Assembly: GCA_015068765.1 (NCBI GenBank)
Contig: SVJY01000006.1
Coordinates: forward strand, 1 to 60,683
Source: Oscillospiraceae bacterium
GTDB lineage: Bacteria; Bacillota; Clostridia; UMGS1883; UMGS1540
DNA: 60,683 nt
Direction of reading: 5' to 3'
Shown here: in pieces, positions 1 through 58,656 of the stretch
Layout of the letters: each line of letters starts with the position of its first letter
How positions within the stretch are numbered: the stretch's first letter is position 1
Position numbers and translations under genes: made by a program
The notes under the pieces: generated by a model
Seen by the model: the letters and a program-made list of their open reading frames with translations, nothing else
What the model was told of the DNA's origin: nothing
Database searches by the model: none

Positions 1-127
1 CATTGCCGACTATGCACTTCCCCACGTGAAGGCAATGATTGCCTCCGGTCTTGTAAAGGGTAATGCCGACGGCACCATAAACCCCAAAGGCAATACCACA
101 AGAGCAGAAGCGGCTGTGATTATGCAG
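1..127 (+). repeat. 127-bp exact direct repeat, copy 1 (copy 2 at 17289-17415)
   Basis: Base-by-base identity with 17289-17415, followed by synonymous divergence (cgt atc gta aac vs aga att gta aat). Confidence 0.95.
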
Positions 128-145
128 CGTATCGTAAACCGATAA
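2..145 (+). CDS. 3' end (partial) of a C-terminal SLH-domain protein
   Basis: Frame 2 reads IADYALPHVKAMIASGLVKGNADGTINPKGNTTRAEAAVIMQRIVNR-stop, an SLH motif (TRAEA). Peptide is identical to the end of 14191..17433. Confidence 0.9.
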   Translation: MADYALPHVKAMIASGLVKGNADGTINPKGNTTRAEAAVIMQRIVNR

Positions 146-190
146 AAGCAATACAGACAACGGAAACGTAATGGAAAGGAAAGAAAGAAA

Positions 191-2887
191 ATGAGACAAA
201 AACTTCTGATGATTCCCCTGATTCTTGCTCTTCTGCTGGGCTGTATTTGCCCGGTGCATGCGGCATTTGGAGACACGGCAGGTCTGCCGTGCGAGAAAGC
301 GGTGGAAAAGATTGCGGCATTAGGGCTTGTGGAAGGTAGAGAGGATGGCACGTTTGCACCCGATGAAACCTTAACGAGAGCAGAAATGGCAACCATCGTA
401 CTCCGTCTTCTGAATCTGACGGCGAGTGAGACACAGCAGATTTTCACAGACGTACCCTCCACACACTGGGGCTTTGCCGCAGTGGGCTCGGCATATAAGG
501 CAGGTATCGTCAACGGTACAAGTGCGACGACCTTTGCACCGGACGCGGCAGTCACCTATCCCCAGGCTGTAAAAATGCTTGTGGGGGCCCTCGGATACGG
601 CGTGAAGGCAGAGGCGGCAGGCGGCTATCCTACAGGATATCTGTCCGTGGCGTCCCAGATCGGCCTTCTGGCAGGCGTGGCGAATGCAGACGGTGCAATC
701 ACACGTGGCACCATGGCACAGCTTGTCTCGAATGCCGTGGAAATTGACATTTTAGAACGTACTGGCTACGGTGCTGATTACAGCGTGGCGATCCGTGAGG
801 GAGATACTGTCCTTTCGACGTATCTTCACATCAATAAATACGAAGGCAAAATTACAGCAAACGGCGTGACGACGCTGGAGGGCGTTGCCGTCCGGGAAAA
901 CCAGATTGCCATGGGCGAGAAGGTATTTGAAGTAGGCGAAACAGCGGCGGCTTCTTTCTTAGGCAGAAGAGTCTCCCTGTATGCAAAAGAAGAAAACGAT
1001 ATAGAAACAGTACTGTATATTGAAGCCAAAGCCTCGTCGGACAGCCTGACGGTGGATGTATCGGATATTCTGCCGAAGTCCACGCCGGCAACGCTGTACT
1101 ACGAAGTAGAGAACAAGGAATATGCGGTGGACATTGCCCCCGGTGCCGTCTGGATTTATAACGGCGTTCGGAAGACGGATATGACTCCGACAGACCTCCT
1201 GTTTGCTACCGGTACCGTGGAGCTGATTTCCACTAACGGAAAGACAGCGGAGACCGTTCTGATCCGCTCCTTCCAAAACGTGGTTGTGGACAGCGTCCGT
1301 CCGGAGGAATATAAGCTTATCTTTAAAGACAGAAGTGCAGAACTGACAACACTTGTACTTGACCCGACAGACACCTCCTACCGCTTCACCTTCTTAAACG
1401 AGGACGGCTCCGCCGCCGCGGTAGAAGCGTGTGCAGAATGGGATGTGCTTTCCGTAGCTGTCAGTGAGGACGACCGCGTAATGGAGGTTATCCGCAGCAC
1501 AAGAATTGCCGCCGGCAAGGTGGAGGAAATGGGTACCGAAACAGTCACGGTAGCCGGCACCTCCTACGAGGTTGCGGCAAACCTTCGCAGTGAGACCACA
1601 GAGCTTAAAAAGCCGGAGCTGGGCATGGAAGCAAACTTCCGCCTCGACTTTACCGGCAAGGTGGCGGCAGTGGATAACGAGAACTACCGGAACACCAGGT
1701 ACGGCTGGCTGGTTGGCGGTCAGAAGGCAAAGGGTATTGACGGCACGACACAGCTGAAGATTTTCACCGAGGACGGCATAATGAAGCTGTTCACTGTTTC
1801 GGATAAATGTAAGGTAAACGGAAATCCCTCTACGGATGTTTTAGGCGAAAGTGTCCTGCATACCGGCACGGCGATTATCGAACAGCTGCTCTTATTCCAA
1901 GCTACGGCAGAGGACGAAATTGTAGAGATTGAAACGGCTGTGGAAAATACAGATTTTTCCCTGCGTGAGGAAGAACGGCTTGCCAAATTTTCCAGAGACT
2001 TTTACAGTGACAGAATCGGTATTATCGGCTATGAATCCAAAATCTTTGCAACCCGGTATCTGATTCGCGACATCAGCAAAATCTTTATCGTTCCGAATCA
2101 GTACACCGGCGACGATAAGCTCTATTCTGTAAGAAACTGGGCTGACGTGGGCCACGTGGGTGCAGGCGGTACCTATAACGGCCTTTCCCTGTACGACATC
2201 AATGAGGATAACATCGTTTCCGCGATGGTTTCCCGTGATACGGTCAGTGCGATTCCCACAGGGGACCCGGGCGTCATTACGCATATTGCCCAGACGATTA
2301 CAGAGGACGGCGAACCGGTTATGAAGCTGACGCTGGAGAGAAAGAACGATACAGCTACCGTACTTGTAAAGGAAGACCTGGCAGTTATAACGGAGAACGT
2401 GCTGTCCGACCCGGCAAAAGACCCGGCGGCAGTAGAAGGCGTTCTGCCTGCAAGCCTGAAGCCTTCCCAGCTGGAGCGTGGTGACGTGGTGCAGTACGAT
2501 ATGTCCACGATGACCGGTGAAGCTACGGCGATGCGTGTGCTTTTAAGAAGCGGTTCCCGCCTGGCGGGTGAACGTGCCAACAATGAGGGCGGCCAGAATG
2601 CCACCGGCAATTTGACGGCAGACTCGGATTATATCGGCAGCGTGTACGCCTATGCACAGACGGATAAGGTTTCCGAATACGGTGCCAGAATTTACGTGAC
2701 ACATGAAAAACGGACAGGACCGGAAACCTACGAGCGTATCCGGCACTTTAACGGACCCAAAATCGTACTGTATGATTCCCAGCGGGATACCTTCAAAACC
2801 ATTACAAGTGCCGAAATTTATGACGGCGACTGGATTTTTGCCTATAAAATGAATGCAACAGAACGTATTATCGTTGTTTACCGATAA
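191..2887 (+). CDS. S-layer-type protein with signal peptide and N-terminal SLH domains
   Basis: Signal peptide ending VHA-A; SLH motifs FAPDETLTRAEMA, FTDVPSTHW and FAPDAAVTYPQAVKM; long beta-rich acidic body. RBS GGAAAGGA upstream. Confidence 0.85.
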   Translation: MRQKLLMIPLILALLLGCICPVHAAFGDTAGLPCEKAVEKIAALGLVEGREDGTFAPDETLTRAEMATIVLRLLNLTASETQQIFTDVPSTHWGFAAVGSAYKAGIVNGTSATTFAPDAAVTYPQAVKMLVGALGYGVKAEAAGGYPTGYLSVASQIGLLAGVANADGAITRGTMAQLVSNAVEIDILERTGYGADYSVAIREGDTVLSTYLHINKYEGKITANGVTTLEGVAVRENQIAMGEKVFEVGETAAASFLGRRVSLYAKEENDIETVLYIEAKASSDSLTVDVSDILPKSTPATLYYEVENKEYAVDIAPGAVWIYNGVRKTDMTPTDLLFATGTVELISTNGKTAETVLIRSFQNVVVDSVRPEEYKLIFKDRSAELTTLVLDPTDTSYRFTFLNEDGSAAAVEACAEWDVLSVAVSEDDRVMEVIRSTRIAAGKVEEMGTETVTVAGTSYEVAANLRSETTELKKPELGMEANFRLDFTGKVAAVDNENYRNTRYGWLVGGQKAKGIDGTTQLKIFTEDGIMKLFTVSDKCKVNGNPSTDVLGESVLHTGTAIIEQLLLFQATAEDEIVEIETAVENTDFSLREEERLAKFSRDFYSDRIGIIGYESKIFATRYLIRDISKIFIVPNQYTGDDKLYSVRNWADVGHVGAGGTYNGLSLYDINEDNIVSAMVSRDTVSAIPTGDPGVITHIAQTITEDGEPVMKLTLERKNDTATVLVKEDLAVITENVLSDPAKDPAAVEGVLPASLKPSQLERGDVVQYDMSTMTGEATAMRVLLRSGSRLAGERANNEGGQNATGNLTADSDYIGSVYAYAQTDKVSEYGARIYVTHEKRTGPETYERIRHFNGPKIVLYDSQRDTFKTITSAEIYDGDWIFAYKMNATERIIVVYR

Positions 2888-2902
2888 GAAGGGAGGACGT
2901 GT

Positions 2903-5900
2903 ATGCGTTTTAGAAAGCTTACGTCGCTTGTTTGTGTGCTCATGCTGTTATGCGGCATGGGGCATGGGGCAGCGGCGGCAGAAGCACCGTATAATCGGGA
3001 AGAGATTACGGCACACACGCTGGTGCATGACGAAAACGCCACGGAGCTTATAGTAAACGGCGGCTTCGAGGTTTTGGAATCGGAAACGAATCTCCAGGTA
3101 TGGGCGCTGTCAACCGGTACGCTCCGTGCAGGCGAAGCAGAGCGGACAGAGGATGCCCACAGTGGGATGTATGCCCTCCGCCTTTCAGCCGACGAGGAAA
3201 TACACCTTACCCAACAGGTGGGAATCAGCCGTCTGAAAAGCGGGAAAATTTGCGAGCTTTCTCTTTGGGTGAAGCCCCAGACGAACGAAAGCAGCCTGAC
3301 GCTTACGCAGTCCTTTGGTATTCGTAACGAGCAGATTCAGGATGAGGTGCTTACAGAAACGAATACGATAGAGTTTGCAGATGCCCGGGCAGGGGAGTGG
3401 ACACAAAAGATTCTACGCTTCGTTGTTCCCGAACGCATCACCTATACCTTGCTGGATATTTCCCTGCATAAGGATGAAGCAGTGCTGATAGATGATGTAT
3501 CCCTTCTTCTGGAGGGTGCACCGCCGGAGCCGGAAAAGCCTACCAAAAAAGAACCGGTTTTAGAAGACTATGAAATGGTGAAGAACGGCGGCTTTGAGGA
3601 GGGCACGGCAAACTGGGGCGTGGAGCCCGGGCAGTGGAATGATTTTATCAGCATTGTACCCGGCGGCGTGACCGGCAACTGCGTCAAGATTTTCAAGGAA
3701 CCGGACAACAGCAATAAAAACCCCCAGCTCCTTCAGCACATTTCCGGCTTTGAGGAGGGGGCGGAATACCAGATGCATTTCCGCTTGAAATCGCCGGGCG
3801 TTGATATGCTGGAATCGATTTCCTACGGCTTCCGCTGGGGTACAAACGGCGTGCGTATGGGGCACGACAAAACGGGCAACATGGTGCTTTTGCAAAATGA
3901 CAACTGGATAGATGTGTATCTTGACAGCGTCTGCCCGCCGGGTGCAAACACCTGCATGATTGACTTTCGTCACTTTGCAAAGGTTGGCTACTATATGGTT
4001 GACGATATAAGCGTGTATATGACGAAAAGGGCACCCTATGCCGAGGTGGAAACCGATGAAATCTTCTATTATACGGAGTGGAAGACGGGCGAGGTGACCG
4101 TTCGCGACAGAACGAAGACCGGTGCACTGCAAAACGGACGCTTCGTGCTGGAAATCCGTGACGGCGAAACGGCTGTCTTTACAAAGGAAGGAACGATGGC
4201 CGGTACGGTGGGTACACTGGAATTTCCCCTGACCGTTTTAGCGGAAAAGGGAAAGGAATACAGAGCCCACACTGCCGTATATGACGAAGCGGGTACGCTT
4301 TTAGAGGAATACGACAGTGCAATCTACCGCTACGACAGACCCACATACCTCGGGGCAGACGGTGTATTCCGTAAGCCGGACCGAAACGGCGTGATGCAGG
4401 AGTACAATGTTGTCCTCGGTAACGGTGTAACGAATCCGAGAATCAGCATCGTTGCCCCTTGCGGCGTTACCGTAGCACAGCTTGTTGGCGGGGCGTCCCT
4501 GCCGCTGAAGGAACGGCTGGATATGGTCGAAAAGGAAGGACTTTTAGCACAGATTGTTCTTTACAGCGGAAAAATGAGTGGCGGCCACCCGGAGATGCTG
4601 CCGGCAACAATAGACAAGGTTATGGCAGTAAAGGATCACCCTGCACTGTTCGGCTATAAAATTCAGGATGAGCCCATGCAGAAGGGCAATTCGGACGAGG
4701 AATTGGCACTGGCCTATAAGACCATTCGCGACCTCGATCCCCACCACCCGATTTACACCGTAGACTCCGGCGAAGCAAGCTACGAGCGTATGGGTAAGTT
4801 CTGCGACCTTATGGATATTGACGTATACCCCGGAAATGATCCGGAGCGTGCCTCCTTACTGGGCGAAAAAATCGAGGCGGCCGTCAAAGCGGTCAAGGGA
4901 CGAAAGCCCGTAGGCCTTCTGCAGCAGGCATTTGAACTTGGTGGCACGTTCCCCACAGCCGATGAATTCCGGCACTACGCCTATCAGGCACTGATGTCGG
5001 GTGCTTCCGGCTTTGGCTATCATTCCTTCGGGGAATCGACCACGCCCATAAGCCCCGAGCATTCCTCGTGGCCGGGCCTTGTGGAGATGGCCAAGTGGGA
5101 GCAGGGCTTTATGTTCGACAGCCTTGTAAAGGCGAAGAATCCCATGCTGAATGAGGAAAAAACAGAAAAAGTATGGTGGCGTACCTACGTACTGGACGGT
5201 AAAATTTACGCCATTGTCTTAAACCGACAGCTGGAGGAAAATACGGCGACGGTGACCCTGACGGGTGTGGACGGCGGCTACGGTGCCGAGGGCTATACCG
5301 CAAGGCGGATAGCAGGCGGCGAAGAAGAAACCGCTTTCGTAGACGGCACCACCTTTACGGCAACGCTTATCCCCCAAGCGGCGTATCTCTATGAGATTAC
5401 ACCGAATACGCCTGTGGATTTCAGCACCCTTCCCACCATGAAATTCCGGGATCTGACGGGGTATAACTGGGCACAAACCGCCATTTCTGCCATGGAAAAT
5501 GCAGGCGTAGTAACGGGTACAACCGTGTATCTGTTTGCACCGGGCGAGAAAATCACCCGCGGCGACTTTGCCTATTTCCTGCTAAACGCCTTGGGGCTTA
5601 CGGGCGAGGAAACCGCTTCCTTTGCGGACGTTCCTGAAGATGCCTATTATGCGAAGGCGATTGCCGCAGGGAAGGCGGCAGGTATCTTGCAAGGCATAGG
5701 CGATAACCGCTTTGACCCCGAACGGGAAATTTCACGCCAGGATATTATGACCATTACGGCACGGGGCGTAAAAGCATTCAAATCGCTTCCGGAGGGCGAC
5801 ATGGCAGTGCTTGATCGCTTTACGGATGCGGGGCAGATTGCAGAATACGCACGGCAGAGCGTAGCAGATATGACAAATGCCGGGCTGATTCTCGGTAACG

Positions 5901-5992
5901 GTGACGGCACCGTAAATCCCTTAGGCAGCACAACAAGAGCAGAGGCGGCAGTAATTGCAAGCCGCGTCTACCATATGCCGGTCGGTGCATAA
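2903..5992 (+). CDS. Secreted multidomain putative glycoside hydrolase: 2x CBM4/9-like, Ig-like, TIM barrel, 3x SLH
   Basis: Signal peptide; NGGFE...IDDV jelly-roll repeats; HPALFGYKIQDEP, RDLDPHHP and DIDVYP; C-terminal SLH motifs (ITRGDF, ISRQD, TTRAEAA). RBS GGAGG. Confidence 0.75.
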   Translation: MRFRKLTSLVCVLMLLCGMGHGAAAAEAPYNREEITAHTLVHDENATELIVNGGFEVLESETNLQVWALSTGTLRAGEAERTEDAHSGMYALRLSADEEIHLTQQVGISRLKSGKICELSLWVKPQTNESSLTLTQSFGIRNEQIQDEVLTETNTIEFADARAGEWTQKILRFVVPERITYTLLDISLHKDEAVLIDDVSLLLEGAPPEPEKPTKKEPVLEDYEMVKNGGFEEGTANWGVEPGQWNDFISIVPGGVTGNCVKIFKEPDNSNKNPQLLQHISGFEEGAEYQMHFRLKSPGVDMLESISYGFRWGTNGVRMGHDKTGNMVLLQNDNWIDVYLDSVCPPGANTCMIDFRHFAKVGYYMVDDISVYMTKRAPYAEVETDEIFYYTEWKTGEVTVRDRTKTGALQNGRFVLEIRDGETAVFTKEGTMAGTVGTLEFPLTVLAEKGKEYRAHTAVYDEAGTLLEEYDSAIYRYDRPTYLGADGVFRKPDRNGVMQEYNVVLGNGVTNPRISIVAPCGVTVAQLVGGASLPLKERLDMVEKEGLLAQIVLYSGKMSGGHPEMLPATIDKVMAVKDHPALFGYKIQDEPMQKGNSDEELALAYKTIRDLDPHHPIYTVDSGEASYERMGKFCDLMDIDVYPGNDPERASLLGEKIEAAVKAVKGRKPVGLLQQAFELGGTFPTADEFRHYAYQALMSGASGFGYHSFGESTTPISPEHSSWPGLVEMAKWEQGFMFDSLVKAKNPMLNEEKTEKVWWRTYVLDGKIYAIVLNRQLEENTATVTLTGVDGGYGAEGYTARRIAGGEEETAFVDGTTFTATLIPQAAYLYEITPNTPVDFSTLPTMKFRDLTGYNWAQTAISAMENAGVVTGTTVYLFAPGEKITRGDFAYFLLNALGLTGEETASFADVPEDAYYAKAIAAGKAAGILQGIGDNRFDPEREISRQDIMTITARGVKAFKSLPEGDMAVLDRFTDAGQIAEYARQSVADMTNAGLILGNGDGTVNPLGSTTRAEAAVIASRVYHMPVGA

Positions 5993-6004
5993 AGGAGGGA
6001 TAGC

Positions 6005-9000
6005 ATGAAACTGAAAAAAATATGTGCACTCCTTTGTACCTGCCTAATACTGTGCGGCATGGGCTTTTCTGCACAGGCGGCGGCGTATCCCTTTACGGAA
6101 ATTGCCGCCCACACACTGGTGGACAAGGTGAATGCACAGGAGCTTTTAAAAAACGGTGATTTTTCCACACCGGAGAGTGACACCAAGCCACTGGGCTGGG
6201 GGATAAACCCCGGCACCTTCGGCGAAGGGAAAACGGCAGAGTATATCCGCGGCGACGCATCGTATGTAAAGCTGAATTACCCCGGTACAGGGTATGCGGC
6301 ACTTTCGCAGGCTTTGAGCGTGCAGGACGCGGACGGAAAGAAATGCCAGCTCTCCGCACGGGTGAAGGGCGAAAACACAGAATTGGACATTCGTATCCGT
6401 GTTGCCTTTACCGTTTTGCAAAACGGTGCGGAAGTGGAGCTTGCCGACGTTCTCAATGTATATTTTACAGACCTAAGCACCAATAGCTGGACGCAAAAAA
6501 TTGTCGAGTTTACGTTGCCGGAAAATATCCGGAGAATTACACTGCGGTTCCAGCTGCACAGCGACCTAGAGGCGTATGTGGACGACATTTCCCTTCGTAT
6601 GGAGGGGCTTGCCGAAGACGCAATAGCGGAAAAACCGCCGGTGCTGGAGGACTACGAGATGCTTGAAAACGGCGATTTCTCGGAAGCGAGTGCGGACGGT
6701 CTTACGGTTGCGGCATGGCGACCGGAGCCGGGAAAGGGCGGTACCTTTGACGGCCGGGGCGCGGTTTTGGTAAAAGACGGTGGCGTACAGGGAAATTATG
6801 CGAAGGTTCTTTCCGGGGAAACATTTCCCCAGCTACGGCAGACTGTCAGGGGGCTCATGCCCACGGCGGAGTACCGTCTGATCTTCAAATACAAAAACCC
6901 GACCGCGGATGCCGTAAGCTTTTCCTGCCAGATGCAGTACACGAAGGGCGGTACGGATGCGGAGCTGGACGGCACAAAAAACATGATGGCGTATTACAGC
7001 GACACGTGGCAGGACGGATTTTTCGATTTTGAATGTCCGGAAGAGGTGGACGGCTGCCTTGTCAGCTTCCGAAACCTTTCAGCCGCAGGCGAGCTTTGTA
7101 TTGACGATGTCAGCCTCTATATGACGAGAAAGCCCTACCGTGCCCTTGTGGAGACGGATGAACGGTTTTATTATACCGAGTGGAAGACCGGATTCGTTAC
7201 GGTAGAGGACAGAGGAAACGGAGAATCTCTTGCCGGCGGAAAGGCTGTTTTCACTATTTTGGATGGCGATACAGCGGTACTGATGCCGCAGGAAAAGACG
7301 CTGACAGAAGAAAAGACCGTATTTGAATTTTCCACGGAGAAGGTGTTCTCTGAAAAGGGAAAGGAATATACCTCCGAGGTGAAAATTTACGATGCAGATG
7401 GAGAGCATGTAGAAACCCAGCGCCATCCGGTCTATCGGTACGACCGCCCCACCTATCTGGGAGAAGACGGCGTATTCCGTAAGCCCGACCGAAACGGAAA
7501 AATGATAGAGAAGAACATTTCTATCGGAAATAACGTACCCTTTACGCTTATCGATAAGGCGGGAGATGAGATAAGCGACCTTGGCATCACCGTGGTGCAG
7601 ATGGGTACAGATACAGAAAACCGCACGCTTTTAGAGCGTATGGATGCGGTGGAAGCGGCGGGTCTGCACGTGCTTATCTCTCTTTACAACGATAAGAAGA
7701 GCGGCGGACACCCCGATATGCTGGAAAACACCGTGCAGACGGTAAATACGGTTAAAAATCATCCCGCCCTGTTTGGCTATAAGGTACAGGATGAGCCGAT
7801 ACAGAAAATGAATACGGAGGATGAGCTGGCAACGGCCTATAAGCTTATCCGCGATCTCGACCCCCACCATCCTATTTATCTGGATGATTCGGGGGAGGGC
7901 TCCTATAAACGCATGGCCCGTGTCTGCGACATTATGGACATTGACCACTATCCGTCAAAAGGTGCCTACAGAGCCTCCGTCATCGGTGAAAAAATCGAGG
8001 CGGGCGTGGCGGCAGTAAAGGCCAGAAAGCCGGTATCGCTCCTCCAGCAGGGCTTTGAGATCGGCGGAGAGATGCCGACGGCGAATGAATTTCGCCACTA
8101 TGCGTATCAGACCCTATTTTCCGGCGGCTCTGCCGTAGGGTATCACTCCTTCGGCGGCGAGCCGGGGCATCTGGCACCGGCGCTTGATGAATGGGATGGT
8201 TTATGCGAGTTTGCCGAATGGGAGCTTACCTTCCTGTTTGATGCCACCGTCAACCGCAAGTATCCCATGCTGAATGAAGAAAAAACGGATACCGTTTGGT
8301 GGCGTACCTACGTAAAAGACGGCAAAATCTATGCGGCGATTCTAAACCGCCGGGTAGAAGCAACGAACACGGCAATCGTAAGCCTTTCCGATTTTGACGG
8401 CGGACATACGGCCGCAGGATATACGGCAAAGCGGATTGCCGGCGGCACGGCGGAAACCGTAGAGGTCACCGACAGCATTTTCCGGAAGGACCTTGAAGGC
8501 ATGGCGGCATACCTCTATGAAATCACGCCGAATAATACCGTAGATTTCAGCGACCTGGAAACGACGAAATACAGAGACCTTACCGGATATAACTGGGCAT
8601 ACACTGCCATCTTGGCAATGGAAAAGGCCGGGGTTGTCAATGATAACACAGCGGTAAGCTTTGCACCCGGCAAAAATATCACACGCGGCGACTTTGCCTA
8701 CTTCCTGATTCGGGCACTGGGGCTCACATCGAATGCAAGCGAGAATTTTGACGATGTGCCTTTAGATGCCCCGTACGCAAAGGAAATTGCCGCAGGGAAA
8801 AAACTCGGAATATTAAACGGGGTTGGAGAAAATCTGTTTAATCCCGAGGGCGAAATTACCCGTCAGGACCTTATGGCAATCGCGGCCCGCGGTATGCGAA
8901 TTTGCCTGGAGCTTGACGAAGGGAAGGAGGAGGATCTTGCGGGCTATGCCGACGCCGGTCTGATTGCAGAGTACGCAAAGCTGGATATTGCCGCAATGGT

Positions 9001-9118: not shown

Positions 9119-9127
9119 AAGGAAAGG

Positions 9128-9697
9128 ATGCGCGATGTAGTATCCGATGCAGAGTACCTTGCGGCCGAGGAACGCACAGTTTTCTATGATATGCTGATGA
9201 CGGAAGGCGGTACATATGACGGCAATGTGTGGCGAACGTCTCGTGTGGAGAACGGCACCACGTATTATCTCTTCGTCAACAGCGGGCAGACGGCTTTTTC
9301 GGCGAACGTAGAGGGTGCATATGCAAGGGAAATAGTAACGGAGAACGGCAGCAGTGTTTCGGACAGGGCAAGCGGCGGCTTTACCGCTACGCTCCCGCCG
9401 AGAAGTAGTCTCTTTTTCTCCACCGGGGACACAGCATTGCCCGGTCTATACGTAGGCAATACCTTAAAAAACAGCTTTGCAGAGGGTATCGTACTTCGCA
9501 CAGCCGGCGCATACGAAATGGGAGCACTGTACCAAAGGTACGGCAACGCATGGGAGCTGGTTCGCGTATATGCGGATGGCGATTCTGTCACGGCAGGAGA
9601 AGGAACCTACAAATTCAAAACCTTTTTATGGGATGCGGCACTCTCGCCGCAGCATCCTGCGATCAGCGTAGGAAGCAAAACGAGGGTAACAAAATAG
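9128..9697 (+). CDS. Hypothetical protein matching only the C-terminal region (post-barrel beta domain plus W-P tail) of the paralog family
   Basis: VWRTSRVENGTTYYLFVN resembles VWWRTYVKDGKIYAAILN of its neighbours. Ends GALY...YKFKTFLWDAALSP. No signal peptide; AAGGA upstream. Confidence 0.6.
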   Translation: MRDVVSDAEYLAAEERTVFYDMLMTEGGTYDGNVWRTSRVENGTTYYLFVNSGQTAFSANVEGAYAREIVTENGSSVSDRASGGFTATLPPRSSLFFSTGDTALPGLYVGNTLKNSFAEGIVLRTAGAYEMGALYQRYGNAWELVRVYADGDSVTAGEGTYKFKTFLWDAALSPQHPAISVGSKTRVTK

Positions 9698-9739
9698 GAT
9701 TGCCCCTTCGGGGCGAAAAGAATGAAACAGGAGGAATAA

Positions 9740-11311
9740 GTGAATATGAAAACGAAAATTTTGGTTTTAGCACTGGTTCTGGTAATGATTGGCACATGTA
9801 TGCCCACGATGGCGGCGCAGCCGACGGGCGATAATCTGATTACAAACGGTTCCTTTGAGGATGGGCTTACGGGCTGGAAGCTTGCCCAGGGTGTAAGCGG
9901 TGAGCCGGCGCTCACTGTGTCTTCCGGTACAGTGGTAACAGATCAAAAAACGGATGGAAATAGCGCTGTCATGCTAACCGGCACAAGCGACGAGAGAACG
10001 GTACTCCGCCAGTTCCTGCCTGCCGGCACGCTGGAAGAAGGCAAGCAGTATGAACTTTCTGCCTACATCAATATTATAGCCGGCACGGGTGCAAGAATCG
10101 CCCTTCGCGAAGAGGATACTTATAACGGTGAAGAGGTGTGTGATTTAATCGGAACGACGCCGTCTGGTGCTAGCAGTAAATTCAGCTCGGCAGCAACGAA
10201 CGAATGGGTCCGTCTCTCGACGGTGTTTACCTGCAAGGAATCGACAGCAACAAACGGTTGCTCCTTCATTGTAGATATAAACAAAAGCGCGCTTACTCTC
10301 TATATCGATGATGTGCAGCTTCGGGAAACGGATACGGGCCTTTTAGCCGACAACGGTGAATTTGAGACCTTTTCAACGGATTTTAAGCTTCTGACCTATG
10401 ACCAGCATACAACATGGCTGGGTCGCAGAGCAGATCAGGGCTTCCCGCTTGATATGTCCCTGGTTCGCACAGAGGATCACGGTACAGCAATTTGCTTAAC
10501 CGGTAGAGGATCGGCAAACAGCACAATCTTTGTTCGTTTTGACGCCGCAAAGCTTTCAGCTCTCACTGCAGATACTACAATAAAATTGAGCTACCGTATG
10601 AAGGTTATCAAGGAGACGGTCAGCGAAGGCGATGCAGTGAATACATCTATCGAGCACAGGTCAGCGAGCCCCGCTCCAGGACGGTTTGCAAATACTGTTA
10701 CAGTACCGGGCGAATATTTCGATCAGTGGATTACCGTAGAGCATTGGTTTACCTACAGACCGGTTGCCGATCAGGTGTATAGAATTAATGCCGGAACACA
10801 TGCAAGTGACACAAAGATATTGTTTGACAGCTTCACAGCTAAGGTAGAGAGTGCCCCGGCTGTTGCGGGCGGGAAAACCATCAGCTGTACAGAAGCGGAG
10901 GTAGATACAACACGAAACAATGATGACGGATATGCAACGACTGCACCGACTACCTTTGTTACTACCCGCATAAGCGTGGACGAAGCGTATACGGTGGGCG
11001 AAACGGCTTCTCTGTATGTCCATTACCCCACGCTGGAGGAAACTGCACAGTCCGGCACAGTCGTCTGTGCAGTATACAGCGAAAGCGAAAATAACCTGAG
11101 AACATTGGAAACAGTGAAAACAGCTGATATTACCGCCATTCGGAGAGGTGAAAGCGGCACAGTGGTTGACTTCCCCTTGACCGGCATTACCATGCAGGAT
11201 GGCAAGACCTATACACTGGAGGCTATGGTATGGGACGGCGTTTCCGGTCTCAGACCGCTGGCAGGTGCTGCAAAGCTGGTTATGCCCATCGTAGAAGCGG
11301 CAACAGAGTAA
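9740..11311 (+). CDS. Secreted non-catalytic protein with 2 CBM-like modules and C-terminal W-P tail
   Basis: Signal peptide; NLITNGSFE...YIDDVQL and LLADNGEFE...LFDSF; ends CAVY...YTLEAMVWDGVSGLRPL. RBS AGGAGG. Confidence 0.7.
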   Translation: MNMKTKILVLALVLVMIGTCMPTMAAQPTGDNLITNGSFEDGLTGWKLAQGVSGEPALTVSSGTVVTDQKTDGNSAVMLTGTSDERTVLRQFLPAGTLEEGKQYELSAYINIIAGTGARIALREEDTYNGEEVCDLIGTTPSGASSKFSSAATNEWVRLSTVFTCKESTATNGCSFIVDINKSALTLYIDDVQLRETDTGLLADNGEFETFSTDFKLLTYDQHTTWLGRRADQGFPLDMSLVRTEDHGTAICLTGRGSANSTIFVRFDAAKLSALTADTTIKLSYRMKVIKETVSEGDAVNTSIEHRSASPAPGRFANTVTVPGEYFDQWITVEHWFTYRPVADQVYRINAGTHASDTKILFDSFTAKVESAPAVAGGKTISCTEAEVDTTRNNDDGYATTAPTTFVTTRISVDEAYTVGETASLYVHYPTLEETAQSGTVVCAVYSESENNLRTLETVKTADITAIRRGESGTVVDFPLTGITMQDGKTYTLEAMVWDGVSGLRPLAGAAKLVMPIVEAATE

Positions 11312-11331
11312 ACAACGAGAGGTAAGACAAA

Positions 11332-12114
11332 ATGAAATTACGTGATAAATTATGGCTTTGGGGGCAGACGGAGGGCTCGCACCATATAAACGATGCCTTC
11401 AAATTGCCGGGCATGAGCCGCATGACCCCCCTAGAGGGTGCCTACTACTTCGGCATCCGTAATATGTGCCGCGTCGTTATGATGGGGCTTCCGAAGCTCC
11501 CCTTCGACCAGGACCAGATGGTGCTGGATACGATGGAAAACGTGGTCTGGTCCATTATCGGTGACGGCACAAGCGGCAAGGCAGACTATACAGACGAAAT
11601 TATTCGTTTAACGCACCAATATCCGAACATCACGGGTGTAATCATGGATGATATTATGCGTCTGCCGCGAATGGAAATCTTCTCGCCGGAATCCTACCGG
11701 GTTTTCAAGGAAAAGCTGAAGGATGCGGCACGGCCGATGCCGCTGTGGTGCACCATCTACACCCATCAGCTGACAGAGGAGCGTATTCCCTACATTGCGG
11801 AATGTGACGTTCTCACCTTATGGACCTGGCATCAGGAGGATTTGCCAGCTATTCGTGAAAACCTAGCGAAGCTCCGCACGCTCTCCGGCGACCAGCCGAT
11901 CTACGGCGGCCTGTATATGTGGGACTATGGCAACAAAAAGGAAATCAGCGATGATTTGATGCAGCTACAGCTGGATACCTACTACGAGCTTCTTCGGAAT
12001 AAGGAGATCGCCGGTGTAATCGTCTGCTCGAATTGCTGTGCCGATGTGGGACTTAGGTCCTCCGTCATGGTACGGGATTGGATTCGTTTGCACGGGGATG
12101 AAGAGATAGAATAG
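11332..12114 (+). CDS. Uncharacterised cytoplasmic protein, probable (beta/alpha)8 barrel, possible glycoside hydrolase
   Basis: Alternating strand/helix pattern with WLWG, SRMTP.EG, YPNITGVIMDD, LTLWTW and YMWDYG. RBS GAGG. Confidence 0.55.
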   Translation: MKLRDKLWLWGQTEGSHHINDAFKLPGMSRMTPLEGAYYFGIRNMCRVVMMGLPKLPFDQDQMVLDTMENVVWSIIGDGTSGKADYTDEIIRLTHQYPNITGVIMDDIMRLPRMEIFSPESYRVFKEKLKDAARPMPLWCTIYTHQLTEERIPYIAECDVLTLWTWHQEDLPAIRENLAKLRTLSGDQPIYGGLYMWDYGNKKEISDDLMQLQLDTYYELLRNKEIAGVIVCSNCCADVGLRSSVMVRDWIRLHGDEEIE

Positions 12115-12122
12115 CTGAATTT

Positions 12123-12175
12123 TCGCCCGCAAATCGGAGGGGTATTGGAGGGAGCCCCGGTTGATTTGCGGGCGA
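12123..12175 (+). other. Intercistronic stem-loop without U-tract
   Basis: Perfect 13-bp stem TCGCCCGCAAATC/GATTTGCGGGCGA between two co-oriented genes. Confidence 0.7.
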
Positions 12176-12205
12176 TGCAGCCTCATTTGAAAAAAGGAGA
12201 GGACA

Positions 12206-14155
12206 ATGAAAAAACTAAAAAGAGGCATACATATTGATTTTCATACGCTGCCCGGCATTTATAATTTTGGGGAAGGCTTTGATGCCGAGGTGTTTGCCGA
12301 ACGGCTGAAAAATGCCAATGTGGAGATTATCAATGCATTTTTTCAGTGCAACATCGGTCATGTGTATTATCCGACGAAAATCGGCGTGCCCTACCCGGAT
12401 ATGCAGGGGGATATGTTCGGTGATATAGTCCGGGAGTGCCGAAAAAGGGACATTCGCGTCGTGGGATATACGAATACGGCCATAAACCATGTCCAGGCGA
12501 TTTTGCACCCCGAATGGCAGAGAGTGGACAGCGAGGGAAGAGTTTTGCAGCATGAGAGGACAATAACCAGTAGCTTTTTCCGCACGATGTGCTATAACAG
12601 TGACGGATACCGCAAGTATTTATCTTCCCTCATCCGCGAGGTGATGGAGCTGTATGATATCGACGGTATTTTTGCCGACTGTATGACGCCGAGCCCCTTC
12701 TGTCATTGTCCGAAATGCACACGGGAAATGATAGAAGAGGGACTGGATGTTACAAATGAAAACCACGTGCGGTATTTTGCCCATAAAAAGTTTTTTGAAT
12801 TTGCCCATATGATTCGCTCAGCCGTGCCCGAAGGGAAGCTGGTACAGCAGACCGGCGTCCCCTTTGACTGGGACGGGGCACAGAATGTAAGCACGCACGG
12901 AGAGCTGGAATGCCTCCCGGCAGGAAGATGGGGGTACGACTTTTTCGGACCGCAGGTCGCCTATATGCGGAAATGCCGTGACCAGATTCTGTATATGTCC
13001 GGTCGTTTTCACTATAACTGGGGCGATTTCGGCGGCTATAAATCCATAGCCTCTATGGAAAATGACTGCTTCGATGCCCTTTCCCAGGGCGTACAGGTTT
13101 CGATTGGTGACCATATGCACCCGGCAGGCAATTTGGATAAAAAGCTGTATGAGGATATCGGTGCGCTTTTCGAGCGTGTAAAAGCATATGAGGAATGGAC
13201 GGATGATGCCGTATACCGTTCGGAAATCGGTATTCTCAATGATAAAACCGTAGTTACGAAGGATGAAATGCGTGGCGGCCTTGGGCGAAACCCCTCGGTA
13301 CGCGGTGCGGCAAGAATGCTGGCGGAGCTGAAATACGGCTTCGATATTTTAAATGAGGATATGGACTTTTCACCGTACAAGCTGCTGCTTTTACCGGATG
13401 ATTTGTACATGTCAGAAAATCTGCGGAAAAAGCTTTCTGCCTTTTTGGCGGACGGCGGCAAGGTGATTTCCTCCGGCAGTGCAGGGCTGAATAACGAAAA
13501 AACCGATTTTGCATGTAAGGAATGGGATTTCATCCGCTTCGACGGCATAGATGAGCATAATGTTTCATTCTTTACCGATGCCCTTCGTCAAAGACCCATT
13601 GCCATGTACAGACCGGGCATACGGATGACCTCCGCATACAAAACGGCAGACTATATAAAGCCGTATTTTAACCGCCACTTTGACGGCATACACGGCTATC
13701 GGTACGTACCGCCGGAAAAGACAACGGGACAGGCGGCACTGGCGGAAAAGGACGGCGTGTGCCATATCTGCTTCCGTATTTTTGAAAGCTATTATTTTGA
13801 GGCGTATGCCTTGCATAAACAGCTTCTGGATAAAATTATAAAGCGTTTTATGCCTGCACCGCTTCTGAAGGCAGAGGGAATCCCCTCTACCGCACGGGTG
13901 ACGCTGACGGGCACAAAAGCCTATGAGCTTCTCCATATAAAGACGAGCTTCCCGGAAAAAAGAGGCCACGCCATGAGCGTGATTGAAGAGCATGTAACGC
14001 TTCCGGCGGGACAATGTGTTTCGGTAAAGGGAAGCTATAAAGCGGCGTACCGTTTGCCGGAAAAGACCCCTGTTTCGATTGAAAAAGACGGCACGTACAC
14101 GAAGGTGTTCCTGCCTGAAATCGAAGGCTATGCCATGTTTCTCTTAGAAAAATAG
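12206..14155 (+). CDS. GH151-like (GHL6) alpha-L-fucosidase with beta-galactosidase trimerisation-like domain
   Basis: N-terminal IHIDFHT...FDAEVFAERLK...GHVYYPTKIG, DGIFAD, C.C..C, RFH..WGDFGG.K and SIGDHMHP, recognised as GH151-type motifs. No signal peptide. Confidence 0.7.
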   Translation: MKKLKRGIHIDFHTLPGIYNFGEGFDAEVFAERLKNANVEIINAFFQCNIGHVYYPTKIGVPYPDMQGDMFGDIVRECRKRDIRVVGYTNTAINHVQAILHPEWQRVDSEGRVLQHERTITSSFFRTMCYNSDGYRKYLSSLIREVMELYDIDGIFADCMTPSPFCHCPKCTREMIEEGLDVTNENHVRYFAHKKFFEFAHMIRSAVPEGKLVQQTGVPFDWDGAQNVSTHGELECLPAGRWGYDFFGPQVAYMRKCRDQILYMSGRFHYNWGDFGGYKSIASMENDCFDALSQGVQVSIGDHMHPAGNLDKKLYEDIGALFERVKAYEEWTDDAVYRSEIGILNDKTVVTKDEMRGGLGRNPSVRGAARMLAELKYGFDILNEDMDFSPYKLLLLPDDLYMSENLRKKLSAFLADGGKVISSGSAGLNNEKTDFACKEWDFIRFDGIDEHNVSFFTDALRQRPIAMYRPGIRMTSAYKTADYIKPYFNRHFDGIHGYRYVPPEKTTGQAALAEKDGVCHICFRIFESYYFEAYALHKQLLDKIIKRFMPAPLLKAEGIPSTARVTLTGTKAYELLHIKTSFPEKRGHAMSVIEEHVTLPAGQCVSVKGSYKAAYRLPEKTPVSIEKDGTYTKVFLPEIEGYAMFLLEK

Positions 14156-14190
14156 ATTGTTTTAATCCGAGAAAAAAAGGAGACGATACT

Positions 14191-17100
14191 ATGAAAAAGA
14201 CAATAGCAGCCATGTTAGCAGTTCTTTTGCTATGTTCCGGTGTTCTATCCGTTTCGGCAGAGGAAAGGGAGTACCCTTTTAGGATTTCCCCCACGGTGGA
14301 AATGCGGGAGGATGGGGAAGCCTATTCAATCAAGGAGCGTCCGATAAAAGAGGGCGATTATAAAATCCAAACCTTGACAAAGCATACAAAGACAGCAGGG
14401 AAAAACGGCGATGAAAATATTTTCCCGGACGGTGGCTTTGAAAATGCGACAGAAACCTTTCTTACGGGATGGAGCGGAAACGGCGTTGAAGGCGGCGTAA
14501 TCGGTGAAACCAACGCCTTTATTGTGAATGATGCCCAAGAGGGCAAAAAGGCACTCAAGCTATCCGGACCGGAAGGAAAGAACGTACACGGCGTACAGGT
14601 TTTTACGAATATGATACCGGGCGAGGAATATGAGTTATCTGCTTGGTGTAAACGAATTTCCGGTACAGCCAATATTTCCTTAGGCTTTGGTTATGTTGAG
14701 CCGGAGACAGATATGAGTATGGAATACGGCAATCGGGTAAACCTAAGCTTTTCGGATGCCCCTGCCAATACCTGGACGCAGAAAATTATTCAGTTTACCA
14801 TGCCGGAGGATGCCAATAAAGCAACGATAATGGCTCGCCTTATGGGCGGCGGTGAAATTTATTATGACGGCATTATGCTTCTCGGGCCCCAAAAGCCGGT
14901 AGAAATTGCGGCAATGCCGGAATATGTAAAGCCCGGAGAGGGTACGGAAAACATCTTCAAAAACGGGGGCTTTGAAGAGGAAACGGAAGTCACGCATATC
15001 AAGCACGGCACAGAATATGAAGGCGTTTGGTTTGACCGTGACGACGATGTTATGAAAGGGCACTTTACCTATTCGGATGCGGAAGCCCATTCGGGTAAGC
15101 AGTCCATTCATTTAAAGGGCGATAATTTGAATATGCCCTGGCTGGGGCAGGTCATCAAGGTTGAGCCGGAAACGACCTACCAGATTTCAGCTTGGGTAAA
15201 GGTAGTAGACCCCCGAAATGTGAATTTCCGCTTCCAGGGTGACGGGTATAAAAATTCCCCGGAGCAGACAGAAGAAAACTATATATCGGATGCACGTACC
15301 ACCGTTCATCCCGGCATAGACCCGAAAAACCTTGAGTGGCAGCAAATTGTCGGCAACTTTACAACCCACCAGGATGCGGAGTATTATTGCTTTATGCTGC
15401 GTGGTGGTGATAAGATACAGGATATGTATTTTGACGATATAGAGCTTTACCCGCTCGCAGGTCTCAGCAAAAAGCTTCGCAGCTTTATTCCGGACGATGT
15501 GTTCTACTATTCCGATTATGAAGGAAACGGGTATGCCGACCTTACCACCTACAGAAGCACCACCGACGAAAATCAGCAAGTGCGTTTTCGCTTCTATGAT
15601 GCGGATAAGGTAGTCAAGGAAGAAATCGTAACGCTTCCTGCGGACGGTACATATCGTTTCTATTATCCCTTAGAGCTTCTGGCGGAAAAGAAAAAGGAAT
15701 ATAAGCTTGAAGCTATGATTTTGGGTCCAAACGGCGAGGAAACGGACGACACGATGGAGCGTTTCATTTATAAATATGATCGCCCCACCATGCTGAATGA
15801 AGCCTTGGAGCTTATGACGAGTGATGGAACGAAAATTGAGAATTACATACTGGCACAGGGTACAACGCCGGCGGTCATGTGGCAAATTCCCGAAGTCGGT
15901 GCGACCATCGGCCGTGCAATCGGTACCTGGCGAACAGATAGAATCGAACGACTGGATGTCGCATACGAAGCCGGGATGTATGCTACCGTTACCCTCTTTA
16001 ATCACGAGGACATCCGTGACCCGGAGGTGTATGCCGACGTGGTAAATACGATTAATATGGTAAAAGACCATCCGGCACTGATCGGCTGGTATTTATGGGA
16101 AGAGCCGAAATTTGCAGAGTCTACCTATGACCTACAGGAAAACATCCGCATCGGTGCGAAGCTGATTCGTGACATGGACCCAAAGCATCCTCTTTTCGGC
16201 GTTGTTTCTCAGCCGCTCCATGCAGGAGAGCTTGGTAAATTCTGCGACATCTTAGATATGGACATCTATCCGGCACAAACGTATGATGGACAGCGTGGTA
16301 TGCGTATTGCAGAGGCAATTTCCATGGGTCTGGAAAGTAACGATTGGCAAAAGGTTGTTTCCATCATGACCCAGGCCTTTGAATGGTTTGAATTCCAGCC
16401 CACCTGGAACGACCTTAGAAACTATATTTATATGGCCATGTTTGAAGGTGCCGGCGGCTTCAGCTTCCATACCTTCGATAAAGTAGACGGTATTGCTGAA
16501 AACGGTACGGGTGTTCAGCCCGGCGACGAAAGATGGAATGGTATGGTGAAGGCATCAGAGTGGGAGTATGACTTTATCTTTGACCACTTTGTAAACCAAA
16601 AAGCGCCCCTATTTAACGAAGGCAGAACAGAGGATGTCTGGTGGAGAACGGTTGTCCGTGACGGGGAGCTTTACGCCATTGCCGTAAACACCTGGGAAAC
16701 GAAGGAAAGCACGGTAGATATTCCTCTCGTTGACTATACGGGTACAATTAAAATAAACGGTGCAAAGGCGGAGCTTATAGAGGGCGGCGAAGCGAAAACC
16801 GTCAATATTTCCGGCGATACCTTCCGTGTAGAGCTTGAGAAATTCCAGTCCGCTATCTTCAAGATTACCCCCAATGAAGCGGTAGATTTCTCGAATGTAA
16901 AGGTTACGCGGTTCCGTGACCTGCAGCACCACGTCTGGGCAAGAGATGCCATTATTGAAATGGATGAAAAGGGCATTGTAAACGACCTTTCTGCGGTTGC
17001 GTTTGCACCGGGCAGAAATATTACCCGTGGCGACTTTGCTATGTTCTTAGTGCGTGCACTCGGTCTTACCGGTGACGGCTCCAAGGTAAGCTTTGACGAT

Positions 17101-17433
17101 GTTTCTCCCAAAAGAGAGTATGCGGAAGCCCTTGCCATCGGCAAAGCGGCGGGCATCTTAAACGGTGTGGGCGAGAATAAATTTAACCCGGATGCGGAAA
17201 TTTCCCGCCAGGATATGATGACGATTATCAGCCGTGGTATGGCACTCTCCGGGGATAGCGATTTATCGGCATTTTCCGACAGCGGCCTCATTGCCGACTA
17301 TGCACTTCCCCACGTGAAGGCAATGATTGCCTCCGGTCTTGTAAAGGGTAATGCCGACGGCACCATAAACCCCAAAGGCAATACCACAAGAGCAGAAGCG
17401 GCTGTGATTATGCAGAGAATTGTAAATCGATAA
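14191..17433 (+). CDS. Secreted CBM-CBM-Ig-TIM barrel-SLH paralog
   Basis: Signal peptide; DGGFE/NGGFE modules; HPALIGWYLWEEP and DILDMDIYP; C-terminal SLH repeats. RBS AAGGAG. Confidence 0.75.
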   Translation: MKKTIAAMLAVLLLCSGVLSVSAEEREYPFRISPTVEMREDGEAYSIKERPIKEGDYKIQTLTKHTKTAGKNGDENIFPDGGFENATETFLTGWSGNGVEGGVIGETNAFIVNDAQEGKKALKLSGPEGKNVHGVQVFTNMIPGEEYELSAWCKRISGTANISLGFGYVEPETDMSMEYGNRVNLSFSDAPANTWTQKIIQFTMPEDANKATIMARLMGGGEIYYDGIMLLGPQKPVEIAAMPEYVKPGEGTENIFKNGGFEEETEVTHIKHGTEYEGVWFDRDDDVMKGHFTYSDAEAHSGKQSIHLKGDNLNMPWLGQVIKVEPETTYQISAWVKVVDPRNVNFRFQGDGYKNSPEQTEENYISDARTTVHPGIDPKNLEWQQIVGNFTTHQDAEYYCFMLRGGDKIQDMYFDDIELYPLAGLSKKLRSFIPDDVFYYSDYEGNGYADLTTYRSTTDENQQVRFRFYDADKVVKEEIVTLPADGTYRFYYPLELLAEKKKEYKLEAMILGPNGEETDDTMERFIYKYDRPTMLNEALELMTSDGTKIENYILAQGTTPAVMWQIPEVGATIGRAIGTWRTDRIERLDVAYEAGMYATVTLFNHEDIRDPEVYADVVNTINMVKDHPALIGWYLWEEPKFAESTYDLQENIRIGAKLIRDMDPKHPLFGVVSQPLHAGELGKFCDILDMDIYPAQTYDGQRGMRIAEAISMGLESNDWQKVVSIMTQAFEWFEFQPTWNDLRNYIYMAMFEGAGGFSFHTFDKVDGIAENGTGVQPGDERWNGMVKASEWEYDFIFDHFVNQKAPLFNEGRTEDVWWRTVVRDGELYAIAVNTWETKESTVDIPLVDYTGTIKINGAKAELIEGGEAKTVNISGDTFRVELEKFQSAIFKITPNEAVDFSNVKVTRFRDLQHHVWARDAIIEMDEKGIVNDLSAVAFAPGRNITRGDFAMFLVRALGLTGDGSKVSFDDVSPKREYAEALAIGKAAGILNGVGENKFNPDAEISRQDMMTIISRGMALSGDSDLSAFSDSGLIADYALPHVKAMIASGLVKGNADGTINPKGNTTRAEAAVIMQRIVNR
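17289..17415 (+). repeat. 127-bp exact direct repeat, copy 2
   Basis: Identical to 1-127. Confidence 0.95.
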
Positions 17434-51920: not shown

Positions 51921-51934
51921 GGGGAATCCTCCTT

Positions 51935-54646: not shown

Positions 54647-54649
54647 AGG

Positions 54650-56254: not shown

Positions 56255-56336
56255 GTTTATCATCCTTTCAGTTTTTGGTTTTCGTTCCAAACAGAGAGTA
56301 AGGCAGATCCTTCCGTTTGAACTATTGTACAAATTG

Positions 56337-56365
56337 ATTATACTAAAAGTCGCTTTTTTTTGCAA
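56337..56365 (-). promoter_or_regulatory. Sigma-A promoter of the CBM/GH three-gene unit
   Basis: TTGCAA-17 nt-TATAAT. Confidence 0.7.
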
Positions 56366-56436
56366 TAAGGTACAAAGCAAAAAGTGCAATTCGTCAACAG
56401 AAAAGTAAAATACGCAAAGAAAAGCAAAAAAAACGG

Positions 56437-56445
56437 TGCTATAAT
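56437..56445 (+). promoter_or_regulatory. Extended -10 promoter of the aminotransferase operon
   Basis: TGCTATAAT with no recognisable -35. Confidence 0.5.
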
Positions 56446-56499
56446 TAAAAACATAAGGCAAAAGTGCCTTGCGAAAAAATACGAGTAGGAGATATAGTC

Positions 56500-57690: not shown

Positions 57691-57701
57691 GGAGACCTAA
57701 A

Positions 57702-58601: not shown

Positions 58602-58627
58602 TGCCAAGGCTTTCCGGGAATAAACAG

Positions 58628-58656
58628 TTGACTTTTCTGCCTGTTTTCGCTATAAT
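58628..58656 (+). promoter_or_regulatory. Sigma-A promoter of the AraC gene
   Basis: TTGACT-17 nt-TATAAT. Confidence 0.75.

Follow-up and report, generated by a model that had tools for sequence, protein, structure and literature searches.

The window analyzed here is the whole of contig SVJY01000006.1 (60,683 nucleotides) from the Oscillospiraceae bacterium assembly GCA_015068765.1. It contains two loci, 191-17433 on the plus strand and 48855-60683, that encode secreted glycoside hydrolase (GH)-like enzymes, carbohydrate-binding proteins, and proteins with S-layer homology (SLH) repeats. These loci appear to belong to a genome-wide modular surface system in which a small C-terminal domain, here called the tail, would act as a retention module and in one subfamily of which programmed readthrough of a UGA codon would occur; from the sequence evidence, the probability of this explanation is put at roughly 60%. 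SLH repeats bind pyruvylated cell wall polymer. In the proposed system, secreted enzymes with a barrel like that of clan GH-A (32 paralogues) and many noncatalytic proteins resembling carbohydrate-binding module (CBM) family CBM4_9 would be held on the cell surface by C-terminal modules, which would have been swapped by recombination behind the β-sandwich of the enzyme. The module could be three SLH repeats, SLH repeats plus a body of 680 residues, or the tail of ∼90–110 residues. In one subfamily, SLH repeats are followed by a second β-sandwich and a tail, split off in 15 of 27 full-length copies by one TGA in a weak Pro-UGA-A context; the main product of each such gene would be the enzyme ending in SLH repeats, with a tail-extended form as the minor one. 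The open reading frames (ORFs) at 6005-9118 and 9128-9697 would be one example.

Four proteins of the window, B1029 (2903-5992, plus strand), C1037 (6005-9118, plus strand), H1080 (14191-17433, plus strand), and I1021 (48855-51920, minus strand), were found to be homologous to each other by blastp, with 30–49% identity over 920–1122 alignment columns (B1029/C1037, 49%; B1029/H1080, 32%; B1029/I1021, 30%). Each terminates in SLH repeats, as had been claimed in an earlier note made from this DNA, and the repeats number three (88–98 bits in Pfam versus a cut-off of 20.8). B1029 consists of a signal peptide, two jelly rolls (CBM4_9/NTTRR-F1-like), a GH-A-like barrel, a β-sandwich, and the three SLH repeats, and C1037 has the same architecture; H1080 and I1021 show the corresponding CBM-CBM-barrel-sandwich order ahead of their three SLH repeats. 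At 5990-6005, the B1029 ORF ends in TAA, and that of C1037 resumes in the same frame 12 nt on. J903 (51935-54646, minus strand) was 37% identical to I1021 over 822 residues and carries a tail (∼51941-52246) in place of the SLH repeats, so that the postulated tail-ended form of the enzyme family stood in this case. Its other proposed representative, 9128-9697, did not prove to be a separate gene; the first half of its product (termed X) resembles the C-terminal β-sandwich of the enzyme family (hhalign probability of 95.6%, E = 1.3e-8) and is followed by a tail.

Two further proteins with a tail, E523 (9740-11311, plus strand) and K534 (54650-56254, minus strand), matched CBM_4_9 and no catalytic family. 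E523 has a signal peptide, CBM4_9-like jelly rolls, no catalytic domain, and a tail at ∼10949-11281; K534 has a signal peptide, CBM4_9-like domains, and a tail at ∼54680-54976. The ATG at 56254 (534 residues) yields a clear signal peptide for K534, whereas the listed TTG start (603 residues, 54650-56461) does not, and as no signal-like sequence precedes the ATG, the shorter model is to be preferred. A898 (191-2887, plus strand) comprises a signal peptide, N-terminal SLH repeats (80.7 bits), and a body of ∼680 residues without a family name. S324 (59712-60683, plus strand), which is truncated by the contig end, is its paralogue (44% identity over 318 residues), with the SLH repeats likewise N-terminal. 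SLH (PF00395) scores of 80.7–98.1 bits against 20.8 were obtained for 191-2887, 2903-5992, 6005-9118, 14191-17433, 48855-51920, and 59712-60683. Against a gathering score of 25.9 bits, CBM_4_9 (PF02018) scored 46.9 in 9740-11311, 41.4 in 54650-56461, 57.0 in 51935-54646, 62.4 in 48855-51920, and 73.6 in 14191-17433; 6005-9118 reached 24.2 bits, under the cut-off, and 2903-5992 gave no CBM_4_9 match in Pfam.

The source genome (G000) is represented by 1.73 Mb in 57 contigs, 77% complete with 0.09% contamination, the window being one entire contig. All ORFs on which the earlier note relied were present at their coordinates, with parts and order correct, and its view that the two loci are built from the same part types can be extended, as they are two of ∼14 such loci in G000. 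The system genes amount to 184.8 kb, or 10.7% of the assembly. The barrel family accounts for 32 ORFs, while SLH repeats occur in 45, the body in 13, and a tail in 27. Barrel enzymes were found with SLH repeats (14 ORFs), with a tail (6), with SLH repeats and the body (4, of ∼1700 residues), with SLH repeats and a tail (3), or with none of these (5). The tail occurred without barrel or SLH repeats in 18 ORFs, SLH repeats with the body and no barrel in 8, SLH repeats alone in 16, and the body alone in 1, at a contig end.

Tail genes and SLH genes were closely linked, in agreement with the co-occurrence expected in the earlier note: an SLH gene was the immediate neighbor of 16 of the 27 tail genes, whereas 2000 rounds of label shuffling gave 1.7 on average and never more than 8. 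This statistic overstates independence because the cassettes are paralogous. Genes for the body module and for tails were co-located in ∼10 of the ∼14 loci, the sole hint linking the tail to the S-layer paralogue. A complex prediction run without controls on the A898 body (683 residues, 13-row alignment) and the E523 tail (123 residues, 24 rows) returned a score of 0.00, which speaks neither for nor against binding. The absence of cohesins, dockerins, and sortases held for the 77% complete assembly, with 0 matches to PF00963 and PF00404 (cohesin and dockerin) and to PF04203 (sortase). Omp85 was found in none of four genomes, and a CsaB-like pyruvyl transferase (PF04230) scored over the cut-off in all four; the cell is thus monoderm, with the usual means for SLH binding. 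The host is an uncultured, monoderm gut Clostridium of a lineage known solely from metagenomes, and the sequencing runs containing the stretch were animal feces metagenomes.

The four tails of the window (those of 9128-9697, here D189, and of E523, J903, and K534) showed no mutual blastp match at an E value of 1e-3, and profile iteration was therefore required. By hhalign, the pairs E523-K534, E523-J903, D189-E523, and D189-J903 were matched with probabilities of 97.5, 96.4, 90.7, and 90.3%, respectively. Iterated profiles searched against six-frame G000 ORFs retrieved 18 ORFs of the E523 type (including K534 at 8.9e-5), 5 of the D189 type, and 3 of the J903 type. A merged hidden Markov model (HMM) found 27 ORFs in G000, each hit lying 0–10 residues from the C terminus, and matched the extension 9119-9697 at E = 1.3e-14. 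A signal peptide-like N terminus was present in 25 of the 27, and the remaining two are TGA-separated pieces. In the alignment of 24 tails, the Tyr of A-x-Y is invariant and a Leu nearly so, and the end reads K-x-F-x-W ... P. The AlphaFold2 model is a six-strand immunoglobulin (Ig)-like β-sandwich with a mean predicted local distance difference test score (pLDDT) of 76.5 over the ∼90–110 residues.

Nothing above threshold was found for the tail in Pfam or NCBIfam, which agrees with the earlier expectation that it matches no characterized CBM or spacer. Foldseek returned nothing from the Protein Data Bank (PDB) at E ≤ 0.001 for the model of the tail or of X plus tail, the ESM Atlas gave only unnamed Bacillota clusters, and the six matches of the tail profile among longer proteins bore no informative names. 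A search of 1.84 billion representative proteins with the profile gave 815 clusters at E ≤ 0.001, of which 51 reached E ≤ 1e-10. When the best 150 of the 815 were re-scored, 148 of 149 representatives ended with the tail within 15 residues of the C terminus, so that the domain is rarely internal, as had been anticipated; among these best 150 carriers, a further internal copy was seen once and tandem copies twice. CBM_4_9 was present in 39 of 84 carriers of 250–1400 residues drawn from the same 150, with few other families. In a survey of the order, the tail was found in 44 of 87 genomes, with 23 copies in G000, 33 in G008, 30 in G006, 14 in G010, and 11 in G012 (G002, G006, G008, G010, and G012 being the related genomes compared). 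The tail is a real domain, new to Pfam and NCBIfam. From its terminal position, its dozens of secreted carriers, its replacement of SLH repeats, and its tight linkage to SLH genes, we infer a role at the cell surface, in which the tail would be a retention module for a wall glycan or a surface protein rather than a catalytic domain or a spacer. The X sandwich was considered as the receptor of E523-type tails and rejected: of 22 family genomes, 6 contain X plus tail, and the tail was found in G000 and 16 of 21 relatives; since tails are present in genomes lacking X plus tail, X is not an obligatory partner.

The ORF 9128-9697 lies in the same frame as 6005-9118 with a single TGA between them (9116-9118, plus strand; CCG TGA AAG, Pro-stop-Lys), the proposed site of programmed readthrough. 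Readthrough of the C1037 stop would add a 192-codon extension (9119-9697) comprising two helices, the β-sandwich copy X, and a tail of the D189 type; the AlphaFold2 model of this extension (pLDDT of 82.6) places the two helices right after the stop, followed by two sandwiches. A second pair in G000, on contig C20, has the same layout with CCG TGA AAA, and in three further G000 paralogues (1210, 1158, and 1219 residues), SLH repeats are followed by X and tail without interruption. In layout, the TGA genes resemble a fusion in which a GH-sandwich-SLH gene has gained the sandwich-tail end of a gene like J903.

Fifteen such junctions were examined: G008 contributed 10, G000 and G006 2 each, and G010 1. 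Two G002 frames at contig ends were left out. In every case, the short X-plus-tail frame continues the upstream SLH frame across one stop with no spacer, the stop is TGA, and the base behind it is A. The codon that follows reads AAG in 10 junctions, AGG in 3, AAA in 1, and ATA in 1. Pro is encoded just ahead of the stop in 12 of the 15, the remaining three having Leu, His, or Tyr there. For comparison, long ORFs in G000 end in TAA (708), TGA (218), or TAG (183). Pro before and A after the stop were found in 5 of 273 TGA-ended G000 ORFs, two of which are the readthrough candidates; two others, on contigs C4 and C16, have a junk-like translation and are probably shadow ORFs. The 13 tabulated downstream frames span 161–192 codons and terminate in TAA (10), TAG (1), or TGA (2).

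Amino acid conservation begins at the first codon after the TGA. The ratio of nonsynonymous to synonymous differences (pN/pS) was 0.44 over the first 28 codons past the stop in five G008 paralogues, and the corresponding substitution ratio (dN/dS) over the full downstream length was 0.14–0.33, the best-resolved pair having a dS of 0.62 and a dN of 0.17. For the window extension and its G008 orthologue, dN/dS was 0.20. Two fused homologues in G010 (loci L023 and L039) read S-W-K and L-W-K, with Trp where the others have TGA; one of the two groups with the window copy as its orthologue (clade support of 100/99). In a tree of 27 full-length modules, 15 of them with TGA, the TGA and fused states were interspersed, requiring at least three changes, and the median tip length was 1.08 substitutions per site; the interspersed states and long tips indicate that the TGA has been retained through deep divergence. 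The TGA was identical in contigs of three feces metagenome runs, which report on DNA only and one of which may be the source sample.

Several means by which the TGA might be decoded were considered. Release factor 2 (RF2) was present in five of five genomes, so TGA is a true stop. In the same five genomes, selenocysteine insertion was rejected, with no match over the cut-off to tRNA-Sec (RF01852) and 0 matches to SelA (PF03841). A suppressor tRNA was likewise rejected in G008 (92% complete), as none of its 43 tRNA genes has a UCA anticodon. The third candidate was a tRNA-Trp with a 4-bp anticodon stem, of the kind treated in PMC13092985; it was not seen in G008, whose sole tRNA-Trp(CCA) has a normal 5-bp stem. 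Since selenocysteine, a suppressor tRNA, an altered tRNA-Trp, loss of RF2, and an RNA structure (considered below) were all not found, context-driven leaky termination remains. As the fourth base of a UGA stop signal, A is weak. Proline at the C terminus slows termination and release, according to PMC7246954 (citing Hayes 2002 and Pierson 2016). We infer that the UGA would be read in a programmed manner by near-cognate tRNA-Trp.

Catalysis in clan GH-A depends on an acid/base Glu in N-E-P after strand 4 and a nucleophile Glu after strand 7. The barrel family profile matched PDB sequences of a GH158 chain (E = 1e-12, covering only profile positions 475–601), GH2 β-glucuronidases (1.7e-10), and GH5 (∼6e-7), and its N-terminal domains resembled CBM22- and CBM4-type modules. 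In Pfam, GH2_C was matched by 51935-54646 only (22.3 bits versus a cut-off of 21), and GH42 scored 20.3, below its cut-off of 21. In the D-E-P motif of the family, Glu is invariant across the 31 paralogues compared and Asp is kept in 29. This Glu would correspond to the acid/base of the clan (GH158, GH2, GH5, and GH42 barrels); the matches cover partial barrels, and Asp stands for the usual Asn. Only 18 homologues were found among 5.8 billion proteins, under the public names "MAG: Ruminococcaceae bacterium," "Oscillospiraceae," and "Clostridia bacterium." The enzyme is best described as a clan GH-A-like barrel outside any named family and a putative hydrolase.

The body module (residues 216–898 of A898) was found in 13 ORFs of G000, directly behind SLH repeats in 12, the 13th being truncated by a contig end. 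Nineteen columns are invariant across the 13 copies (A898 plus 12 ORFs, loci L082-L093), and in the ∼1700-residue GH-SLH-body fusions, of which there are four, the body makes up the C-terminal third. Matches of A898 to PDB sequences were restricted to its SLH part, and for the body, the ESM Atlas returned only unnamed Bacillota clusters.

Several findings count against the proposed explanation, in its tail part and in its readthrough part alike. Two of the six profile comparisons among window tails were weak (J903-K534, 44.6%; D189-K534, 0.5%). The predicted tail fold is a generic Ig-like one, with VIA Z scores of ∼10 to Ig domains of transglutaminase, GH66, and GH2, which leaves room for a substrate-binding or purely structural role. 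The idea of SLH repeats and tail as interchangeable anchors held in that one enzyme family carries either; they are not strict alternatives, as both occur on one chain in three proteins, SLH repeats first, and in two more with the tail behind a TGA. This weakens a simple either/or anchor model, and because the tail follows SLH repeats on some chains, it is no mere replacement for them. In the enzyme family, the aligned β-7 nucleophile position (Q-A-F-[E]) is Glu in 5, Asp in 4, and another residue in 22 of the 31 paralogues, so that even hydrolase activity is putative. The nonconserved strand-7 position may point to a nonclassical mechanism or to a wrong strand alignment; taken with the invariant Asp-Glu pair, it might, as a speculation, suit substrate-assisted catalysis.

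The rival that survives best takes the tail for an ordinary carbohydrate-binding or structural Ig-like domain, which would target the substrate or cap the protein without any part in cell retention, and its SLH-less carriers for released enzymes and lectins. The generic fold is in keeping with this, a porphyran-binding CBM (8wae; Z of 9.1, TM-score of 0.52–0.58) being among the structural matches, as are the mostly CBM4_9-like public carriers (39/84, with few other families) and the tails behind SLH repeats on proteins already anchored. Substrate-binding CBMs and spacers are, however, commonly internal or tandem, whereas the tail was terminal in the 148 of 149 public representatives and in 27 of 27 G000 ORFs. 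It also takes the position of SLH repeats within one enzyme family and matches no Pfam CBM model. We regard this rival as a serious contender, although an unlikely one.

On the side of the readthrough, the count of 15 of 15 overstates the statistics because paralogues are not independent, and the tRNA-Trp of G000 itself is unassembled at 77% completeness. No conserved RNA structure was found behind the TGA: z scores of single-sequence RNA folds past the stop ranged from +1.1 to −5.1 (+0.47 for the window copy), and a consensus fold of five G008 paralogues gave a positive covariation term, with 2 of 28 pairs compensatory. In G008, loci L034, L037, and L041 may form a long hairpin 10–80 nt past the TGA (z of −5.1, −4.4, and −2.5), without covariation support. 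The window copy has an ATG and a purine-rich stretch 3 codons past the TGA, which makes separate initiation possible there.

This ATG also favors the rival in which the frames downstream of the TGA, 9128-9697 among them, represent independently translated small proteins or fusion leftovers in an in-frame layout without function. The X-plus-tail module appears in public gene calls as 26 clusters of stand-alone hypothetical proteins of 114–189 residues, and about one-third of adjacent genes lie in frame by chance. Long in-frame extensions are, moreover, common in G000 (85 of 746 TAA-ended ORFs are followed by at least 150 open codons in frame), so being in frame alone is not evidence of readthrough. 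Set against this are the 15 in-frame junctions without a spacer and the lack of a common start. The first ATG, GTG, or TTG behind the stop varies from codon 1 to 37 in 13 frames (codon 37 in L037, 31 in L024, and 21 in L031), whereas the sequence is conserved from the first codon past the stop. A dN/dS of 0.14–0.33 over deep divergence rules out decay. The X-plus-tail module itself lacks a signal peptide, whereas all other tail carriers are secreted, and Trp occupies the stop position in the two fused homologues. Taken together, these observations make independent proteins or leftovers improbable.

The remaining rival, in which the tail is not a binding module but a C-terminal sorting signal recognized and removed by a dedicated export or attachment machine, is very improbable: its strict C-terminal position, its β-sandwich of ∼90–110 residues, and its dozens of secreted carriers per genome are outward features of the type IX secretion system (T9SS) C-terminal domain of Bacteroidota, but four tail carriers gave no NCBIfam sorting domain match at E ≤ 1, the lack of Omp85 in four genomes means no outer membrane to cross, the carriers have ordinary signal peptides, no sortase was found in G000, and no candidate machinery was identified.

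Set beside known systems, the putative retention module most resembles CBM37 of Ruminococcus albus, the closest described analogue of the tail when the two are compared by description (PMC4081043). According to that report, CBM37 is a module of ∼100 residues with 51–102 copies per genome, mostly C-terminal on glycoside hydrolases, carbohydrate esterases, polysaccharide lyases, and noncatalytic proteins; it fills the place that dockerins have in a sister species and reportedly attaches enzymes to the cell surface (PMC4081043). Binding of a wall glycan in the manner of CBM37 would suit the tail as well as docking onto the S-layer paralogue would. The same source gives CBM37 as unique to R. albus and as occurring internally and in tandem too (13–18 tandem cases per strain; PMC4081043), whereas the tail is terminal and almost never tandem. 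The present host, moreover, anchors most of its enzymes by SLH repeats, which R. albus does not.

The SLH-anchored glycoside hydrolases and S-layer proteins of Bacillota likewise carry three C- or N-terminal SLH repeats on secreted enzymes, and PDB sequences matched in the SLH region of Bacillus anthracis Sap. The system goes beyond these in having 45 SLH ORFs in 1.73 Mb, one enzyme family with 32 members, an unnamed body always behind SLH repeats, and a further module behind SLH repeats that would be accessed via a stop codon. With the cellulosome and amylosome it shares catalytic and binding subunits that bear a common small terminal module, beside SLH-bearing scaffold-like proteins. Unlike the cellulosomal module, the tail is a predicted β-sandwich rather than a calcium-binding helical pair, and no repeated receptor module was identified.

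For the readthrough, the A1 protein of phage Q-β is the nearest parallel, a minor C-terminally extended form of a structural or surface protein arising at a leaky UGA where a near-cognate tRNA inserts Trp. Low-level decoding of UGA as Trp was reportedly described in Bacillus subtilis by Lovett in 1991. In contrast to Q-β, the present putative case is chromosomal, involves multiple paralogues with conservation in at least four species, and lies at a domain boundary in a fixed Pro-UGA-A(A/G)G context. In-frame stops under purifying selection occur in prokaryote genes, according to PMC7918605. In the literature search, no paper was found that joins stop codon readthrough with S-layer homology.

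The remaining genes of the two loci and of the interval between them are as follows. Between E523 and H1080 lie two plus-strand ORFs without a signal peptide, one of 260 residues with no Pfam or NCBIfam match (11332-12114) and one of 649 residues resembling GHL6 and GH42M (12206-14155). Their products are probably cytoplasmic and may process imported products. The region between K534 and S324 (56464-59651) encodes a DegT/EryC1-type aminotransferase, an amidohydrolase, and an AraC family regulator, the last a candidate regulator of the second locus. The 31 kb separating the loci hold housekeeping genes, among them those for valyl-tRNA synthetase, the his operon, UvrA, and a topoisomerase, together with a GH36 and others; a check of its gene content revealed no sugar transporter, in keeping with the earlier note, which saw none.

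The TGA junction offers a clean and testable bacterial case of proposed chromosomal stop codon readthrough that is conserved and has a short, well-defined context. In gene calling, such genes fall apart into an enzyme and an orphan "hypothetical protein." Names for the tail, the 680-residue body, and the 32-member enzyme family would help in annotating public clusters in their hundreds, the tail alone accounting for 815. As a more doubtful extension of the proposed explanation, Pro-UGA-A might serve as a programmed switch that gives a fixed minority of each surface enzyme an extra β-sandwich and a tail, the tail being a new surface-docking module of monoderm bacteria and the extended isoforms acting as wall-fixed docking points, through tail-tail or tail-partner contacts, for the many SLH-less enzymes and lectins with a tail. 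If true, this would amount to the cohesin-free assembly of a surface enzyme complex whose stoichiometry is set by translation.

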